The notes beneath the pieces were generated by a model that was not told the DNA's origin, did no database searches, and saw only the letters and a list, made by a program, of their open reading frames with translations. The position numbers were made by a program, and so were the translations under genes. From positions 1 through 49,154 of the forward strand of contig QIFB01000002.1 of NCBI GenBank assembly GCA_003230545.1: DNA of 49,154 nucleotides. The letters run 5' to 3'. The DNA comes from Gammaproteobacteria bacterium (GTDB lineage: Bacteria; Pseudomonadota; Gammaproteobacteria; UBA9214). Positions 281-43,286 of the stretch are shown here, piece after piece. Numbering within the stretch: position 1 is the stretch's first letter; every line of letters begins with the position of its first letter.

Positions 281-606
281 ATCCCTGATTGAGCAAATTG
301 CACCTTTCGAGCGTGAATCCGGTGTCCCTGGCAGGCCCCCTTGTCAGGGAACGCTGCAAGTCCATCCCTGGACGCTCAACGGCTTCATCCCTGAAGCCGA
401 TGTCCCTGACAAGGGGGCCACACCGGATTGCATGACGCAAAAATCTGTACGGTTACTCGGGGTACAGGGTGAATTCTCTAGACCGTTGGCCGCAGGGATG
501 CGGCCATCGAGCTTACAGGGACGTACTTGCAGCGTGTCTTGAGAAATCCCCCTGCACCCCGAGTGACCTTGCTCGGACCGTGCAACCTGCTCGATCAGGG
601 GAACAG
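281..606 (+). repeat. Nested-palindromic structured intergenic element, copy 1 (most degenerate copy)
   Basis: Same architecture as 25922-26253. It carries the invariant 68-nt core at 343-410 and the invariant 32-nt GACCGTTGGCCGCAGGGATGCGGCCATCGAGC at 481-512. Outer arms CCCTGATTGAGCAAATTGCAC / GTGCAACCTGCTCGATCAGGG are imperfectly complementary. It lies between the convergent protease and hisC stops. The strand label only gives orientation relative to the other copies. Confidence 0.85.
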
Positions 607-18710: not shown

Positions 18711-19105
18711 TGCTGTTCTCCTGATCGAGCAGACTGCATAGTCCGAGCAAGGTTACTCGGGGTCCAGGGAGAGACAGCTCAAGACCCGCTGTAAATACAT
18801 CCTGGTCACTCCCGGCATCCTGCCTCCCGCGACACTCGTACATCCCTGTACGTCGTACGCTCGATGGCCGCATCCCTGCGGCCAACGGTCTTGATCTATC
18901 TCTCCCTGGACCCCGAGTAACCGTACAGATTGTTGCGTCATGCAATCCGGTGCCCCCGGTCGTCCCCCTTGTCAGGGACATCGGCTTCAGGGATGAAGCC
19001 GTTGAGCGTCCAGGGATGGACTTGCAGCGTTCCCTGACAAGGGGGACGACCGGGGACGGCGGATGCACGCTCGACAGGTGCAGTCCGCTCGATCAGGAGA
19101 ACAGC
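18711..19105 (-). repeat. Nested-palindromic structured intergenic element, copy 2 (inverted relative to copies 1 and 3, with an extra ~55-nt module)
   Basis: The reverse complement aligns end to end with 25922-26253. The 68-nt core at 18971-19038 and the 32-nt block at 18859-18890 are identical to the other copies. Terminal arms TGCTGTTCTCCTGATCGAGC / GCTCGATCAGGAGAACAGC are perfect inverted repeats. It starts 11 nt after the ptsI stop and ends 92 nt before the mgtE ATG. Confidence 0.9.
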
Positions 19106-19197: not shown

Positions 19198-20556
19198 ATG
19201 ACCGACGTCGCAGAAACCGAGTCCATCAATACCCGGCGTGAACAGCTCATGCAGGCACTGGATGCCGGGGCCGCCGAGCAGATCGGTGCATTACTGTCAG
19301 GCCTGTACGCCGCAGAGATCGCCGACCTGCTGGAATCCTTCCCGCACGGCCCGCGCGAGATCCTGTGGGAACTGGTACACCCGGATGATCGTGGCGAGAC
19401 CCTGGTCGAGGTCAATGACGAGGTCCGTACCGGTCTCATCAATGAGATGGATCCCGAGCAACTGGTTGCCGCAACCGAGGGCCTGGATACCGACGACCTC
19501 GCCGATCTGCTGAACGACCTGCCGGGGGCCGTGATCCATGAAGTCCTGCGCTCCATGGACAAGCAGAACCGCGACCGGCTGGAAGCGGTGCTCCCCTACC
19601 CGGAAGACACGGCCGGCGGCATCATGAATGTGGACAGTGTTACGGTCCGGGCCGATGTCACCCTCGATGTCATTATGCGCTACCTCCGGGTACACCCGAA
19701 CATCCCGGAAACCACTGACCAGTTAATCGTGGTTGACCGCAACGACACTTACCGCGGTGTATTGCCGCTGACGACGCTGTTGGCCAATGACCCTGAACGG
19801 CTGGTTGCCGCGGTCATGAACCGCGAGGTTACCGCTATCCCTGCCGCATTACCGGACGTGGAGGTGGCACGCATGTTCGAGGACCGCGACCTGGTCTCGG
19901 CGCCGGTTGTCGATGACAACAACAAGCTGCTGGGACGCATCACCATTGACGATGTCGTCGATGTGATCCGTGAGGACGCCGACCACTCGCTGCTGAGCCT
20001 CGCCGGCCTCGACGAGGAGGACGACACCTTCGCACCGGTGTTCAAGAGTGCGCGGCGGCGTGCGGTCTGGCTGGGGATCAACCTGTTTACCGCCTTCATT
20101 GCCTCCTGGGTCATCGGCCTGTTCCAGGCCACACTGGAACAGGTAGTGGCCCTGGCCGTGCTGATGCCGATTGTTGCGAGCATGGGCGGTATTGCCGGCA
20201 GCCAGACGCTGATTATCGTCATTCGCGGTCTCGCACTGGGGCAGATTGGCCGCAGCAATGCGCGCTGGCTGATGTACAAGGAACTCTCGGTTTCCCTGCT
20301 GAATGGTATCGGCTGGGCACTGCTGGTCGCACTGATCACATGGCTGTGGTTTGAAGATGCCGGCATCGGGCTGGTGATCGCTGCGGCCCTGGTTATCAAT
20401 CTCGCGTGTGCCTCCATCGCCGGCATCACCATTCCCTTTGTACTCACCCGCATGAAGATTGACCCGGCGCACGCCGGCACCGTGCTGCTGACCACGGTCA
20501 CGGATGTGATCGGCTTCCTCGTCTTCCTGGGACTGGGAACAATCTTCCTGCTGTAG
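19198..20556 (+). CDS. mgtE: Magnesium transporter MgtE
   Basis: 452 aa with an MgtE N-domain, a CBS pair and a 5-TM C-terminal channel domain (GGIAGSQTL... motif). Confidence 0.9.
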   Translation: MTDVAETESINTRREQLMQALDAGAAEQIGALLSGLYAAEIADLLESFPHGPREILWELVHPDDRGETLVEVNDEVRTGLINEMDPEQLVAATEGLDTDDLADLLNDLPGAVIHEVLRSMDKQNRDRLEAVLPYPEDTAGGIMNVDSVTVRADVTLDVIMRYLRVHPNIPETTDQLIVVDRNDTYRGVLPLTTLLANDPERLVAAVMNREVTAIPAALPDVEVARMFEDRDLVSAPVVDDNNKLLGRITIDDVVDVIREDADHSLLSLAGLDEEDDTFAPVFKSARRRAVWLGINLFTAFIASWVIGLFQATLEQVVALAVLMPIVASMGGIAGSQTLIIVIRGLALGQIGRSNARWLMYKELSVSLLNGIGWALLVALITWLWFEDAGIGLVIAAALVINLACASIAGITIPFVLTRMKIDPAHAGTVLLTTVTDVIGFLVFLGLGTIFLL

Positions 20557-20610
20557 GACCCGCGCCTCGCGGGGAATATTTACCGTTCCCGGCGAGGACG
20601 CCGGTCCTAC
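20553..20610. repeat. REP inverted dimer (GTAGGACCGGCG...GGGAA family) between convergent mgtE and pmbA
   Basis: GTAGGACCCGCGCCTCGCGGGGAAT and the inverted copy of GTAGGACCGGCGTCCTCGCCGGGAACGG form one long hairpin. Both genes' TAG stop codons lie inside the GTAG heads. Confidence 0.75.
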
Positions 20611-22051: not shown

Positions 22052-22564
22052 ATGGACGACAGCGAACACAATGAGCATGCGCCGATCAGCAAGACCCGGC
22101 GCAAACGCGAAATGGAAGCCTTGCGCAAGCTCGGTGAAGAACTGCTGTCCTTCGATGCAGGGGCCCTGCTGAAACTCGGCTTGCCGGACCCGTTGCTGGA
22201 GGCCCTGCACGCGGCCAATCGCATCAGCTCACATGGCGCGCGCCGGCGCCAGCTGCATTACATCGGCAAGCTGATGCGCCAGGTGGATACCGCGCCAGTC
22301 GAGGCTGCCGTGCATGCCCGGCAGCACCAGGACATCACCAACACCCGGGGATTTCACCTGCTCGAGGAACTGCGCGAGGCACTGATCGTCGAGGAAGATG
22401 CCGCGCTGGCAACCATTCTGCAACATTTCCCGCTGGCCGACCGCCAGCGGCTGCGCAAGCTGGCCCGGCAGGCACGCAAGGAACGCGGAGACAGGCAGCC
22501 CCCGAAAGCATCACGCATCCTGTTCCGTTACCTGCGTGAGTTGCAGGAAGATAACGAACCGTAG
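22052..22564 (+). CDS. yjgA: Ribosome-associated DUF615 protein (YjgA/DarP-like)
   Basis: About 170 aa. The N-terminus is acidic, followed by SKTRRKREMEALRKLGEELL, typical of YjgA. Divergent from pmbA. Start taken at ATG 22052. Confidence 0.75.
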   Translation: MDDSEHNEHAPISKTRRKREMEALRKLGEELLSFDAGALLKLGLPDPLLEALHAANRISSHGARRRQLHYIGKLMRQVDTAPVEAAVHARQHQDITNTRGFHLLEELREALIVEEDAALATILQHFPLADRQRLRKLARQARKERGDRQPPKASRILFRYLRELQEDNEP

Positions 22565-22659
22565 GACCGGCCCTTTATACCCATTGGGGTGCCGGCTGGG
22601 AATGCCTTTCCCCGCGGGGCGCCGGTCCTACGTAGGACCGGCGCCCTCGCCGGGAATGG
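22561..22659. repeat. REP cluster of the GTAGGACCGG family (three units in alternating orientation)
   Basis: GTAGGACCGGCCC... (22561-), inverted GGGAATGCCTTTCCCCGCGGGGCGCCGGTCCTAC (22598-22631), and direct GTAGGACCGGCGCCCTCGCCGGGAATGG (22632-22659). Confidence 0.75.
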
Positions 22660-25921: not shown

Positions 25922-26253
25922 TTTCCCTGAGTGAGCGAACTGCACCTGCCGAGCGTGCATCCGCCGTCCCCGGCAGGCGCCCCTGTCAGGGAACGCTGCA
26001 AGTCCATCCCTGGACGCTCAACGGCTTCATCCCTGAAGCCGATGTCCCTGACAGGGGCGCCTGCCGCGTACACCGGATTGCATGACGCAACAGTCTGTAC
26101 GGTTACTCGGGGTCCAGGGGGGTTGCTCAAGACCGTTGGCCGCAGGGATGCGGCCATCGAGCGTACAGGGATGTATTTACAGCGGGTCTTGAGCAACCCC
26201 CCTGGGCCTCGAGTGACCTTGCTCGGACTGTGCAGTTCGCTCACTCAGGGAAA
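25922..26253 (+). repeat. Nested-palindromic structured intergenic element, copy 3 (best-preserved copy)
   Basis: A perfect 24-bp outer stem pairs 25922-25945 with 26230-26253. A perfect 21-bp stem (25972-25992/26045-26065) encloses two hairpins with TCCC loops. A 34-bp stem (26101-26134/26185-26218, only G:T exceptions) encloses two hairpins with GGGA loops. The element begins 67 nt upstream of the transcarbamylase ATG. Confidence 0.92.
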
Positions 26254-26355
26254 CAACCATTAAAATATTCAGAGGGAAAGACACCATATGCGCCGGGAAT
26301 CGGCGCAGTGCATGGTGTTGCTGCTGTCGCCTGATGCGACAGTCAGTCGTACCGC

Positions 26356-29317: not shown

Positions 29318-32300
29318 CTACTCGAAAATCTCAAAGACACCGGGTTCCTGTGATTCCGTAACCGGAGTCTCATGCGGCCCGATGTCGACCTCGGTATATA
29401 CCGGGTCGGCCCACGGCCCGGTTACCGTGTATTGCTTGTGTGCGAACTTCGTGTATTTTTCCAGTTCATCCCCAAGCAGATATTCTGCCACCAGCAGCGC
29501 CGCGCCCACAATCGGGCCACCGGCAATGACGCCGGCAATCGGCAGGCTGGAACCGACATGCGGTACCACGGTCACCAGTTCGTCATAGTCCTCATCTTCA
29601 AGGCCGATGCGCCCGGAAATTTCGATGCGCGCGGCCGGCCCCTCGATCACCAGGTCGCTGGTAAAGGCATCGCCGTCATTCAGGACAAAGTTGCCCTCGA
29701 TGCGGTCGAATGTGTAGCCTTTCTTGTACAGGTCATCAAAATCCAGCGACAGACGGCGCGGCAGCGTGTGCAGGCTGACCAGGCCGAACACGCGCCCGGC
29801 ACCCGGCTTGATGTTGAGTAGCTGGCCGTCCTGAATAAGGAGGTACAGCTTGCCGTCGACCACGGCCGGGCGAAGCGCCCACGGTGCACCCGGCCAGCTG
29901 GCGCGCAACGATCCCTGAATATCACCACCGGACACATCTTCCTGGTAGTTGAACTCCCTGAACAGGATCTCCAGCTTGCCATCGGTCACCTCGATATCGA
30001 ACTGCGAGACCTGCCGCCCGGATTCGGCACGCCAGTTACCGCTCGCATCCAGTGACAACATGTCCGATTTGACAGCAAAGCGGCTGACCTGCACCACGCC
30101 CGGCGCCGTGCTTGCCTGCAGCTGCACCTTGCCGAGCTTCATCCCCTCGTATTTGAGCAACTTGATCGCTATGTCGAGTTCCGGGAAGTCGTTCGGGTCA
30201 GCGGCAGTGGCTGTATCAGTGGCATCTGCCTGCCGCCTCAGCTTGAGCAGCTTGAGGTCGGCGGCAACCCGTTCGATGCCCCTGGTACCGCGCTCCAGCC
30301 GGACCTTGCCCTTAACGGTGGGTCCGCCGAGGATGAAGTTCTGTACCGTACCGGTTTCCACGGCAATCAGCGAAACATCCTTTAGGACGTGCTGCAGGAG
30401 TTCCAGCGTACCAATTTCCAGGTCGAGCCTGACCGGTGGCCCGGCAGCCCCGTCGAACCGCGCAAACACCGGCTGCCATTCCGCCAGGGAAAAGCGTTCC
30501 AGCCGGCCACCGACGAACAGCTCCCGGGATCCCGGCATGGCTACCGGTCGCAAGCCGGTCATGATATTGCCCTGCTGCAGTGCCATACCCTGCTCCCCGC
30601 CACCAATCCCGAGACTGAAACCGCAATACGTGCTCCGGGTGTACGATCTGCTCAACAGTTACCGACAGGGGGCGAGTGTCGGCTGCGGCCTTGCCGAACG
30701 GCGCCGGCAGATCAATGGCCATACCTTCAAGACTGGAGGTGAGCTCGAGAGTGATATCCGGTGTTTCCTTGCGGCCCTGCAGCCGCGCGATACGAAGCTG
30801 CACGTCCCAGTCACTGTTGCCGTGCAGAATGCGTCGAGCGCCGGCTGTTCGTCTGCCACAATTGAAACGATGTCGAGCGGTCCCCTGATGCTGATATTGG
30901 TAACCGCATCCTGTGGCTCGGTCCGGACACTGACCTTGACCGGTGCGCCCAGCATGCGGGCCTGCAGATCCTTGCCGGAAATGCCGTCTGAATCGAATGC
31001 AAGCTTCCCCCTGATGCGATCTAACTCGATTCCGCTGGCATTCACCTTCAGTCCACTGCCCTCCAGATGGATGATTCCCTTGATGCGGACTTCACGACCC
31101 TTACCGTGCAGCGGGACGAACACGTCCAGATCAAGTTTCGTCTTCCCGGTCCCGGTTACCCGGTCGACAAAACCGCCATAGAGTTCACCGAGCGGGCTGC
31201 TGCCAAGTTCCGCCAGCATCACCGGCAAGTCGCCCGTCACGGTACCCTTCAGCAGCAGGTCCGGTTTGGCCAGGTCCTTGATCCTGGCGTTTACCTGCGC
31301 CAGCGACGCCGTGCGGATATTCCCCTGACGACTGACGACATCCATCGACCGGCCGGTAATATTGACCTGCGCGGCCAGTCCCCGGATCGGTGTCCAGTCC
31401 GGGTTGAAATCCAGTACGGCACGGGTCACCGGCAAGCGCACTTCCAGCTGTCCCTCGCCGTTGTCGAAGGGCAACTTGTCCAGCGGCCCCTTCAGCACCA
31501 CGCTGCCGTCACGGATATCGCCACTGACCAGGCTGCGGTCCAGCCAAGCCACCCCCGTCGCCGGCATGACCCGGGCGGGCAAATAATGCCTGAGGCGGCC
31601 GAGCTGGCCGCGGTGCATTTCAAGCTGCAGATCAACCACCGGGGTTGCGCCATCTTCCGGAATTCCCAGGTCAAGCTCGCCGGTGAGCGCGAGGTCCGCG
31701 TTCTCAACATGCAATGCATTCCCGGTTATGGCGAGGTCTCCATCCTGCCACTGCCAGCCGATTTCACCGCTGACCGCGTCGAACTGCAGCTCGTCACGAA
31801 ATACACCGGCATCGGAAAAGCCGGCATGCCGGGTATTCAGCCAGATCGCCCCGGTATCCCGGGTTCCGGTCACACTGCCGCGCAGTCCGCTAAACCCCGG
31901 GCCATCCGCCGGACGAATCCCCAGGTCCCGGAAGGTCATATCAAATTCCTGCACTTCGCTGCGGTCCCCGGTGCGCCTGACATCGATGTAGAATTTTTCT
32001 ATCAATCCTTCCGGCTGCAGCCGGGCGATGCGGTGACGCTGCGCTTCCGGAATTCCGGGGGCTGTCCTGACCACTGATAGCAGGTCCTCCAGATACAACC
32101 CGGTAAATTCGCCGGAATAGTACGCATCCCCCTGGTGGCTGCGCTGTGCAATCGAGACACCTGCCGCCTCGCGCACGTCCGCGCCCTGCTCCACGACCAG
32201 GTGCTGTGCCGTGAATTGCCAGCCACTCGGCCGCTTGCGCCAGCCGAAGCGGCCACTGAAGCGGTCAATTGCGTAATCGGTACCGGCATCCTCGCCCTGC

Positions 32301-33136
32301 TGATGCAGTTGCAGCGCCGTGATCTCCAGCTCACCCCGCACCTGCTTGAGCTGTCCTGCACCCAGGTTTACCCAGCAACGCAGGTCAGCGGTTCCACTGA
32401 CATTGGTGTCGGCAGCGATAGAACGCAGGTTTTCCTCGCTGATCAACAGTGAGTGACCCTTGAGATAAACGCGGCCACCCCATTGTTCGGGCGGGCCCTC
32501 TGTTTCATGAATTTCCGCAGTAACATCGACACGGTGACCAAGCTGCGGAGGCAACATGACATAACCGGTCAGCAGTGGATGTTCGCCGGTATTGTCCAGA
32601 GTCAATGTTACATCGGTGAAACGCACCGGGTAGCGTTCCGCATGCCAGTCTTCATACGTGATAACGGAGTCGTGAATAGACAACCGGTCGATGTTGAACA
32701 GGTCGGCAAGCGATCTCTCATCCCCGGAATCCTGCGTCATTCTGCTGATATGGAAGTTACCGTCAGGATCCCGGATCACCGTAACATCGGCACCAATTAC
32801 GTCGATGCTTTCCAGTGACAGGCGGCGTTCCTGCAGGAAATTCATTGCGTCGATGCGGATCCAGATCTCACTGATGGAAAGTCCCGCTACCGGCTGCCCG
32901 GGTTCGGTGATAGCAACATCCAGGAGCCTGAGTACCGGGGTCAGTCCACGCCAGGCCCCCTCGATACGACCGATGGTGACGGTCTTGCGCAATACATCAG
33001 TGGCGAGTTCCTCGAGATCGGCACGGTAGTCGACCAGTGACGGCACCCACAGACGTCCGATCGCAATAACCACGGCCGCCAGGAACAATGCGGCAACGGT
33101 CAGCAGCCAGAAAAAATGAAGAATACGTGCCAGCAT
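29318..33136 (-). pseudogene. yhdP: YhdP/AsmA2-family (DUF3971, TIGR02099-like) large inner-membrane protein, interrupted as sequenced
   Basis: An N-terminal TM helix is followed by about 1270 codons in the conserved rng-yhdP-(nit)-tldD position. It is split into ORFs 30659-33136 and 29318-30655, which share one phase and are separated by TAA 30659-30661. The intervening ~190 nt is protein-like only in another phase (ORF 30312-30803). Confidence 0.75.
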
Positions 33137-43200: not shown

Positions 43201-43286
43201 CGAAACAGGGGACAGACCACGTTTTTCCATGTGGAGGTACCGGTGCCAGACAAGGTAGAGAAAAACGTGGTCTGTCCCCTGTTTCG
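43201..43286. repeat. Perfect 26-bp inverted repeat with a 34-nt spacer
   Basis: CGAAACAGGGGACAGACCACGTTTTT (43201-43226) is the exact reverse complement of 43261-43286. The right arm encodes the start of the Dabb protein signal peptide. Confidence 0.85.

Follow-up and report, generated by a model that had tools for sequence, protein, structure and literature searches.

A YPAL-like nested palindromic repeat of Gammaproteobacteria with candidate CsrA-binding hairpins in its core

What kind of object is a branched palindrome that fills three intergenic gaps within 49 kb of a gammaproteobacterial genome? The question is raised by contig QIFB01000002.1 (GenBank assembly GCA_003230545.1; Gammaproteobacteria bacterium, lineage UBA9214), of which positions 1 to 49,154, the whole stretch of DNA analysed, are here called the window, and in particular by the element at positions 25922-26253. 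A preliminary description, made from the letters of the DNA, had left the element between two options, a structured RNA module and a mobile palindromic element resembling MITEs (miniature transposable elements with inverted repeats) or ERIC sequences. The explanation that best covers the observations, and in which we place moderate confidence, is that of a MITE-like nested dimer of the YPAL superfamily, whose core may have a CsrA-type role at the RNA level. The composite would be a non-autonomous palindromic repeat from the superfamily of the Yersinia repeat YPAL/RU-2, and its building block would be a hairpin unit in which a 52-nt core caps a stem of 20-35 bp and of freely varying sequence. 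The parts of the third copy and the positions of the other two are as follows (bit scores refer to the covariance model introduced below).

25922-26253, + strand: composite copy 3, two YPAL-like hairpin units nested as a dimer inside a 24-bp perfect outer inverted repeat
25922-25945: left arm of the outer inverted repeat, pairing with 26230-26253 with 0 mismatches in 24 positions
26230-26253: right arm of the outer inverted repeat, pairing with 25922-25945
25968-26069, - strand: unit 1 (arm 1), a 21-bp stem with a 52-nt core at 25993-26044; 100.9 bits
26066-26100: the 'linker', to which unit 1 contributes the 3' half of its imperfect outer stem, together with the junction leading to unit 2's left stem
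26101-26218, + strand: unit 2 (arm 2), a 34-bp stem with a core at 26135-26184; model match at 26109-26210, 109.7 bits
26138-26155, + strand: second core hairpin, GGCCGCAGGGATGCGGCC, with a CANGGANG loop; GGA-to-GGA distance to the first hairpin 23 nt
26163-26174, + strand: tip of the CsrA-consensus hairpin, GTACAGGGATGT, an exact match to RUACARGGAUGU
281-606, + strand: composite copy 1, with units at 326-427 (- strand) and 459-560 (+ strand); 90.4 and 85.1 bits
18711-19105, - strand: composite copy 2, inverted, with units at 18954-19055 (+ strand) and 18779-18894 (- strand)

The stems that had been listed beforehand for the third copy were all recovered. The outer stem is perfect over 24 bp (25922-25945/26230-26253) and that of arm 1 over 21 bp (25972-25992/26045-26065), and the 34 bp of arm 2 (26101-26134/26185-26218) include three mismatches, all of them G.T wobbles on the + strand. 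Arms 1 and 2 are paralogous and inverted with respect to each other, and the same degenerate pattern, CATCCCTGNACGCTCNANGGCNNCATCCCTGNNGCC, fits both, so that each arm is a single unit consisting of a stem and a 52-nt asymmetric core. The core, (N)CGCTGTRAATACATCCCTGTACGCTCGAYGGCNGCATCCCTGCNGCCRACG, folds into a three-way junction that bears two short hairpins, the second of which contains a conserved T.T/A.A mismatch, and is adjoined by a semi-conserved TTAC. The stem beneath the core is near-perfect, 20-35 bp long, and differs in sequence from locus to locus. The GGGA/CsrA-like loops lie on the - strand in unit 1, and GGGA loops lie on the + strand in unit 2. The conserved linker CACCGGATTGCATGACGCAA-N3-TCTGTACGGTTACTCGGGG, described earlier as joining the arms, is indeed present in all three copies, but it does not constitute a separate module, being composed of the outer stem of unit 1 and the left stem of unit 2. 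In the predicted fold, and by comparison with a single-unit relative (L019), its segment CGGATTGCATG pairs with CGTGCATCCG at about 25955-25966. The terminal inverted repeats of the composites (terminus GGCTCTTCCCCTGATCG...) are 24-30 bp long and conserved among the composite copies. The predicted fold of copy 3 has an energy of -240.8 kcal/mol on the + strand (z = -18.8 versus shuffled controls) and of -234.5 kcal/mol on the - strand (z = -17.0), similar values which indicate that the palindrome folds equally well either way. Open reading frames (ORFs) of 110 aa on both strands of copy 3 were considered as protein-coding and rejected as a by-product of the palindrome, in which base pairs are conserved and codons are not.

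All three copies were located exactly at the coordinates that had been assigned to them, copy 2 in inverted orientation, and the genes on either side bear out the intergenic position of each. Copy 1 lies between an unnamed ORF and hisC, which are convergent, copy 2 between a ptsP-like gene and mgtE, and copy 3 between a DUF2934 gene and the N-acetylornithine carbamoyltransferase gene (argF'). The three composites amount to six units per 49-kb window, every one of them intergenic, within a gene content characteristic of a core genome (hisGDC, murA, mlaFED, kdsD, rpoN, hprK, ptsP-like, mgtE, pmbA/tldD, argF', yhdP, rng, leuS, lnt, ybeY and miaB). In a three-way alignment of the copies the mean column identity is 80%, with an invariant core of 68 nt. 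A 20-nt word from the linker and an 18-nt word from a hairpin each occur exactly three times in the window, against 0.01 and 0.05 occurrences, respectively, expected from shuffles. The second unit of copy 2 (18779-18894) carries a 50-nt insertion, which adds the hairpins GUACAGGGAUGUAC and GGCAGGAUGCC. The closest protein relative, at 99% identity, comes from a metagenome-assembled genome (MAG) of the Thiohalobacterales, and exact-protein look-ups with the window proteins gave no match. The possibility of an assembly artefact was rejected on the recurrence of the composite across independent assemblies and samples.

Fold-back artefacts do exist at the contig ends of two of the related loci, L072 (1-90, reverse strand) and L075 (1-30), where the contigs end inside elements with palindromic fold-back joins. 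At L073 and L076 the contigs break directly beside the element; the repeat fragments assemblies of this lineage.

The units are by no means confined to the window. An exact-pattern scan, covering one genome per species with a pattern drawn from both arms, returned 70 loci in 36 assemblies, all of them from Gammaproteobacteria or unclassified Pseudomonadota, and including Chromatiales, Sedimenticola, Thiogranum, Thiohalobacter, Thiotrichaceae, Competibacteraceae, Lysobacteraceae, Marinobacter and Aquisalimonadaceae. The core is near-identical at every locus, including the bases left free in the search pattern. The stem sequences are unrelated between loci, even inside one genome, with a median length of 27 bp and a maximum of 97 bp, and 42 of 73 stems are perfect. 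In an ungapped alignment of 61 units, 97.7% of the cells are paired, all 25 of the 25 outer-stem pairs change on both sides, and the covariation score is 0.80 (versus 0.16 for shuffles and ∼0.12 for slid partners), figures to be read with the caveat that units were admitted to the alignment on at least 19 of 25 paired stem positions. The hairpin pairs covary too. Since the element is a palindrome, covariation alone cannot tell pairing in RNA from pairing in DNA. The covariance model built from this alignment detected exactly six units in the window, two per composite, and 98 units over 81 retrieved loci. Searches by blastn gave no match to the element among plasmids or phages and none to the core in 5,426 Escherichia coli genomes, and an exact-pattern scan of viral contigs was likewise without match.

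The longest stem, of 97 bp with a single mismatch, occurs in a Lysobacteraceae MAG (MAG27; L027, 2552-2773) and may in part be an assembly fold-back. Its outer motif, TTCAGTGACTGCGTTCGATGATG, recurs in a different MAG (L055), which indicates that some families measure about 250 bp.

To which known family, if any, do these units belong? The preliminary description had recognised no named family, which does not hold for the arms: homology links their 52-nt core to the centre of YPAL/RU-2, a repeat said to have been first described by De Gregorio et al. in 2006. A hidden Markov model of the core matched RU-2 of Y. pestis CO92 at 25.6 bits (nhmmer), colinearly over the central 57 nt, and none of 300 shuffles exceeded 6.6 bits. 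The homology is confined to this centre, and the outer arms of YPAL and of the present units are not alignable. The comparison sequence was the 168-nt Y. pestis RU-2/YPAL element as printed by Delihas (PMC2759123). YPAL is a MITE-like repeat of Yersinia and Erwinia carotovora with internal inverted repeats; it is reported to be mobile, with target-site duplications of 3-26 bp at targets near dyad symmetry, and its elements are described as co-transcribed, possibly affecting stability (Delihas 2007/2008; PMC2759123, PMC2229807).

The likeness extends beyond the alignment. Both are intergenic, multi-copy, GC-rich long hairpins, of about 167 bp in YPAL and 166 bp in a sister family of the present units (JAWLGP, see below), and both have a homologous, colinear centre with two GGA-loop hairpins and a TTTAC/GTAAA motif beside the core. 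In contrast, descriptions of YPAL come from Yersinia and Pectobacterium (Erwinia carotovora) alone and concern single units whose stems are imperfect, whereas the window element belongs to a Thiohalobacterales-like MAG and combines two nested units into a composite of 330-395 bp, with stems that are near-perfect, other termini and no detectable target-site duplication.

A second known relative was met in Rfam. A cmscan of the whole window at gathering thresholds, which had been suggested beforehand as a check, gave no match. With relaxed thresholds, the core proved colinear, base by base and through both hairpins, with model positions ∼40-107 of Ysr224 (RF02770), a multi-copy 'sRNA' (small RNA) of Yersinia. 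The scores were 27.6 bits for the window and 25.6 bits for the canonical unit, which miss the gathering score of 70. Unlike the present reading of the element, Rfam treats Ysr224 as an sRNA gene on the UCCC strand. By their sequence, the arms are distant members of the YPAL superfamily, and the identity of the element as a MITE-like nested repeat of that superfamily is, in our judgement, very likely.

How such a repeat might spread is best seen in the JAWLGP family, from the MAG JAWLGP and its relative JAWLHA, in which the same core is carried by a 166-bp element with terminal repeats CAGGGTGAACGCATACT.

L003, L005, L015, L021, L026, L040, L042, L043, L056 and L067: loci of the JAWLGP/JAWLHA 166-bp MITE

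Clean 10-bp target-site duplications were seen by eye in 8 of 10 copies of the JAWLGP family, of which an exact-match scan re-found 7, and the duplications of the remaining two are imperfect or unclear. Two families of insertion sequences might mobilise such elements, since CAGGG ends with a 10-bp duplication would be ISAs1-like and GGCTCTTC ends ISL3-like; a literature search was of no help with either idea. The dispersal of the units over 36 assemblies, together with the duplications of this sister family, upholds the MITE/ERIC-like option of the two offered at the outset, and leaves that of an RNA module unrefuted.

At the composite itself, re-examination led to the same outcome as before, with no target-site duplication and no transposase in the window. 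Similarly, no target-site duplication was seen at most of the other units. Clustering of the ORFs around the 70 loci returned housekeeping synteny only, with no recurrent transposase, a tblastn search of ∼600 kb for an IS200-like TnpA (using an approximate query sequence) gave no match, and no insertion sequence with ends matching the composite was present in the DNA examined.

The composite is found in complete form at four independent loci, belonging to at least two genomes, namely at the three window sites and at the L058/L071 site (CSMAG_610 and a metagenome), where the identity is 86% over 316 nt. Moreover, L071, which is a different locus, has an almost unchanged version of the 50-nt arm-2 insertion seen in window copy 2. 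The four loci and the shared insertion variant imply that the composite and its variants have been copied as units. As for the origin of the dimer, the single-unit relative L019 shares the right terminus GATCAGGGGAAGAGCC with the composite, and the comparison suggests that unit 1 entered the left stem of unit 2 as an insertion in reverse orientation. The nested dimer would accordingly consist of an arm 1 unit lying inverted within the left stem of an arm 2 unit; the duplication expected at the junction of the two units is too degenerate to call.

Once in place, the units persist while their arms change together. In Thiogranum and Thiohalobacter MAGs, common units occupy the aroA-cmk and tyrA-aroA spacers, between flanking proteins that are 79-84% identical, and their stems show many differences, each of them matched on the opposite arm, including a 3-bp indel present on both arms. 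Because independent mutation plus selection would not easily yield a matched indel, we propose that arm-to-arm templating (quasipalindrome template switching, a process reportedly studied by Ripley and by Lovett), and not selection only, may keep the stems perfect. The site of copy 3, from DUF2934 to argF', is filled in all relatives examined, whose argF' proteins are 90-91% identical; argF' relatives farther away have other genes beside them, so that no empty site is definable. The interior of the element can also turn around. The whole interior lies reversed in L074 and L077 compared with window copy 3, with unchanged flanks, and in L043 the core alone is flipped relative to the asymmetric outer part of an otherwise identical element. 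Such flips could arise when the element's own inverted repeats recombine with each other or serve for template switching.

Some further variation was noted around the same site. In L075 and L077, arm 1 of the copy upstream of argF' has an extra module of ∼45 nt (GGTGAGACCGGGAAYCGGTCRAGARGCTGGCCTGGGCCAT) inside or beside it, which is absent from the window. At 26251-26276 of the window, a stretch of ∼23 nt (AACAACCATTAAAATATTCAGAG) separates the right end of copy 3 from the conserved flank GGAAAGACACC; the window and L077 have it, and L074 lacks it. This stretch ends in TCAGAGG, resembling the element terminus TCAGGGG, and a similar tail is found at copies 1 and 2.

What, then, is special about the core? 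On the GGGA strand, hairpin 1 is GUACAGGGAUGU and agrees at 12 of 12 positions with RUACARGGAUGU, the CsrA consensus from systematic evolution of ligands by exponential enrichment (SELEX). In this consensus ACA and GGA are 100% conserved, with the GGA in a hairpin loop (PMC4347634). The chance of such a 12-mer match within the ∼104 core positions is, by hand arithmetic, roughly 2.5e-5. Hairpin 2 on the same strand is GCAGGGAUGC, which fits CANGGANG, and its GGA lies 23 nt from that of hairpin 1. A spacing of 23 nt is said to be within the range bridged by a CsrA dimer, as reportedly established by Mercante in 2009.

Cores that have diverged vary in a particular manner. Among the 23 covariance-model matches that do not fit the search pattern, the loops read A-N-GGA-N-G, in which the GGA is essentially fixed and only the N positions vary (first N, G14/T5/C2/A2 and G18/C2/T2; second N, T16/C6/G1 and T15/C5/A2/G1). 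The loops of YPAL are AUGGAU and AAGGAU. To judge from these sequences, the pattern of loop conservation matches the specificity of CsrA position by position. A reading of the GGGA loops as GNRA tetraloops was also considered, and is ruled out by the UGGA, CGGA and AGGA of the divergent copies and YPAL.

The stems, in turn, are asymmetric with respect to strand. Their mismatches comprise 54 G.U on the GGGA strand versus 18 A.C (p = 2.6e-5), a ratio that is unchanged whichever direction the neighbouring genes run, and hairpin 1 has G.U or G-C as its fifth pair on the GGGA strand only. In the insertion of copy 2, GUACAGGGAUGUAC and GGCAGGAUGCC form two extra GGA hairpins, in both of which the motif is predicted to lie in the loop. 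Together, the strand-asymmetric G.U wobbles and the CsrA-consensus loops point to a role at the RNA level on one strand. A CsrA dimer would bind GGGA-strand transcripts that run through the element, via the two consensus-matching hairpins, and with one core per orientation in the composite a transcript from either direction would present one hairpin pair. That CsrA binding is the selected role of the core is a tentative proposal, with the balance of probability somewhat against it; binding of the unit RNA by CsrA in vitro is likelier than that. The broader idea, in which the 52-nt core is a portable dual CsrA/RsmA-binding module carried by various MITE-like hairpin elements, from YPAL to those of sulfur-oxidiser MAGs, is slightly more doubtful still.

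Known CsrA-related RNAs offer partial parallels. TwoAYGGAY (RF01731; Weinberg 2010), which was predicted to bind CsrA by Gardner and Eldai 2015 (PMC4333381), shares with the present core a three-way junction and two hairpin loops with A-Y-GGA-Y, and the AUGGAU loop of YPAL fits AYGGAY. In contrast, the loops in the window are AGGGAU, and the Rfam model matched arm 1, on the GGGA strand, at a non-significant 23 bits (E = 0.32, gathering score 43). The regulatory RNAs CsrB, CsrC and RsmX/Y/Z likewise have repeated hairpins with A(N)GGA in the loop. However, they are single-copy genes under GacA/UvrY control with their own promoter and terminator, none of which was found for the element, and the Rfam Csr/Rsm families gave no match at E up to 10.

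Several observations weigh against the proposed explanation. The composite displays neither a target-site duplication nor an empty site that would attest its own transposition; neither the window nor ∼600 kb of related loci yielded a partner transposase; and the outer termini differ between families, which is unusual for ends recognised by a transposase. The kinship with Ysr224 does not reach the Rfam threshold (27.6 versus 70 bits), and the Rfam model runs on the opposite (UCCC) strand. The core has no preferred orientation with respect to the flanking genes (20 versus 19 and 24 versus 19), which argues against a cis-acting mRNA element under host selection, for which a preference should be apparent, and neither a sigma-70-like promoter nor a T-tailed terminator lies around copy 3. 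Furthermore, the G.T strand bias could equally be explained by a single-stranded DNA intermediate of one strand, and the T.T mismatch, together with the design of conserved centre and free arms, would suit a hairpin-binding transposase. Such a transposase is at the heart of the rival view of a purely selfish element, in which the core would be the recognition module for a hairpin- or single-stranded-DNA transposase or recombinase, in the way that the TnpA of IS200/IS605 or the REP-associated tyrosine transposases (RAYTs) act on hairpins, and the CsrA match would be coincidental. It would account for conservation of the core alone across families with differing termini, for the unbiased orientation and for the absence of target-site duplications at most units; the T.T/A.A mismatch inside hairpin 2 and the semi-conserved TTAC beside the core would also speak for it, and the one-strand G.T bias fits cytosine deamination of a single-stranded intermediate. 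Nevertheless, no Y1/HUH or other recurrent transposase occurs near any of the 98 copies, the JAWLGP family, with its classical terminal repeats and 10-bp duplication, is DDE-like rather than HUH-like, and a conservation in which N is free and GGA fixed equals a known RNA-binding specificity. We regard a purely selfish element as unlikely, though as a serious competitor.

The constant intergenic location, close to gene ends, and the extreme stability of the fold on both strands would also agree with a generic RNA hairpin that influences the fate of transcripts, as reported for YPAL, REP (repetitive extragenic palindrome) and ERIC sequences, by 3'-end protection, as a decay barrier, or by a pause in transcription or translation, with no specific protein partner and with an incidental core. 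The pairing of the stem is kept where the core decays, in the second unit of L048, and YPAL was described as co-transcribed, possibly affecting stability. Such a hairpin, however, leaves unexplained both the near-identical 52-nt asymmetric tip, found across bacterial orders above a free stem, and the strand-asymmetric wobble pattern, and it lacks a T-tail for intrinsic termination; we consider it improbable. More improbable by far is a family of independently transcribed sRNA genes, a CsrB/RsmZ-like sponge multiplied in the genome, to which the several GGA hairpins per copy (six in copy 2) and the recording of the Yersinia relatives as expressed multi-copy sRNAs might point. No promoter-like or terminator-like signals were found, the Csr/Rsm families of Rfam were without match up to the same E of 10, and the target-site duplications of the sister family, the random orientation and the nesting are properties of a repeat and not of a gene. 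The YPAL-superfamily nested dimer with a CsrA-like core is the explanation retained here.

Among repeats of other kinds, the REP doublets known as REPINs, which are mobilised by RAYTs, resemble the element in being hairpin-forming inverted doublets, intergenic and multi-copy. The arrangement of conservation is reversed, however, since a REPIN has conserved GTAG arms and a free loop, whereas the present element has a conserved loop (the core) and free arms; no GTAG tag was seen by eye at the feet of the unit stems, the arms being variable. GTAG-tagged REP doublets of the REPIN-like kind (GTAGGACCGGCGCC...) do occur in the window, at 20553-20610 in the mgtE-pmbA spacer and at 22560-22656 downstream of darP, and form a family separate from the composite element. 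Another long hairpin, at 43201-43286 between the DUF1451 and Dabb-domain genes, has a 27-bp perfect stem (CGAAACAGGGGACAGACCACGTTTTTC) and a 32-nt loop and contains no YPAL-like core; its score of ∼30 bits with the covariance model on both strands derives from the stem alone. Elsewhere in the window, yhdP (29318-33136, - strand) is represented by two adjacent ORFs of 825 aa and 445 aa, with a stop at 30656-30658, for which a pseudogene, a sequencing error and a genuine split are all possible.

With respect to earlier work, the kind of object, a YPAL-like palindromic MITE, is already known. In the part of the literature that could be searched, no paper was found that contains the sequences of the element or links CsrA to YPAL, Ysr224 or MITEs, and none that reports conservation of the core across many gammaproteobacterial orders. 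Relative to this searchable literature, the nested inverted-dimer architecture is new, as are the spread of the core over many gammaproteobacterial orders, with stems that are free in sequence and yet perfectly paired, and the match of the core to the CsrA site.

As a repeat, the element widens the range of a family, previously regarded as confined to Yersinia and Pectobacterium, to many environmental Gammaproteobacteria, and it accounts for the breaks of MAG contigs of this lineage at element sites. It also represents an unusual course of mobile-repeat evolution, in which a conserved centre is combined with free yet perfectly paired arms, matching indels and frequent interior flips, and it offers a suitable natural system in which to study the maintenance of palindromes. 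Should the CsrA reading be true, binding sites of a global post-transcriptional regulator would have been spread by a mobile element, with a consequent rewiring of its regulon. If the core is indeed a portable module, the repeats would connect the transcripts around them to the Csr/Rsm network or would together titrate CsrA, which would explain the reported accumulation of YPAL-bearing mRNAs in Yersinia, and the nested inverted dimer would guarantee one binding pair per transcript, in whichever direction the element is read.

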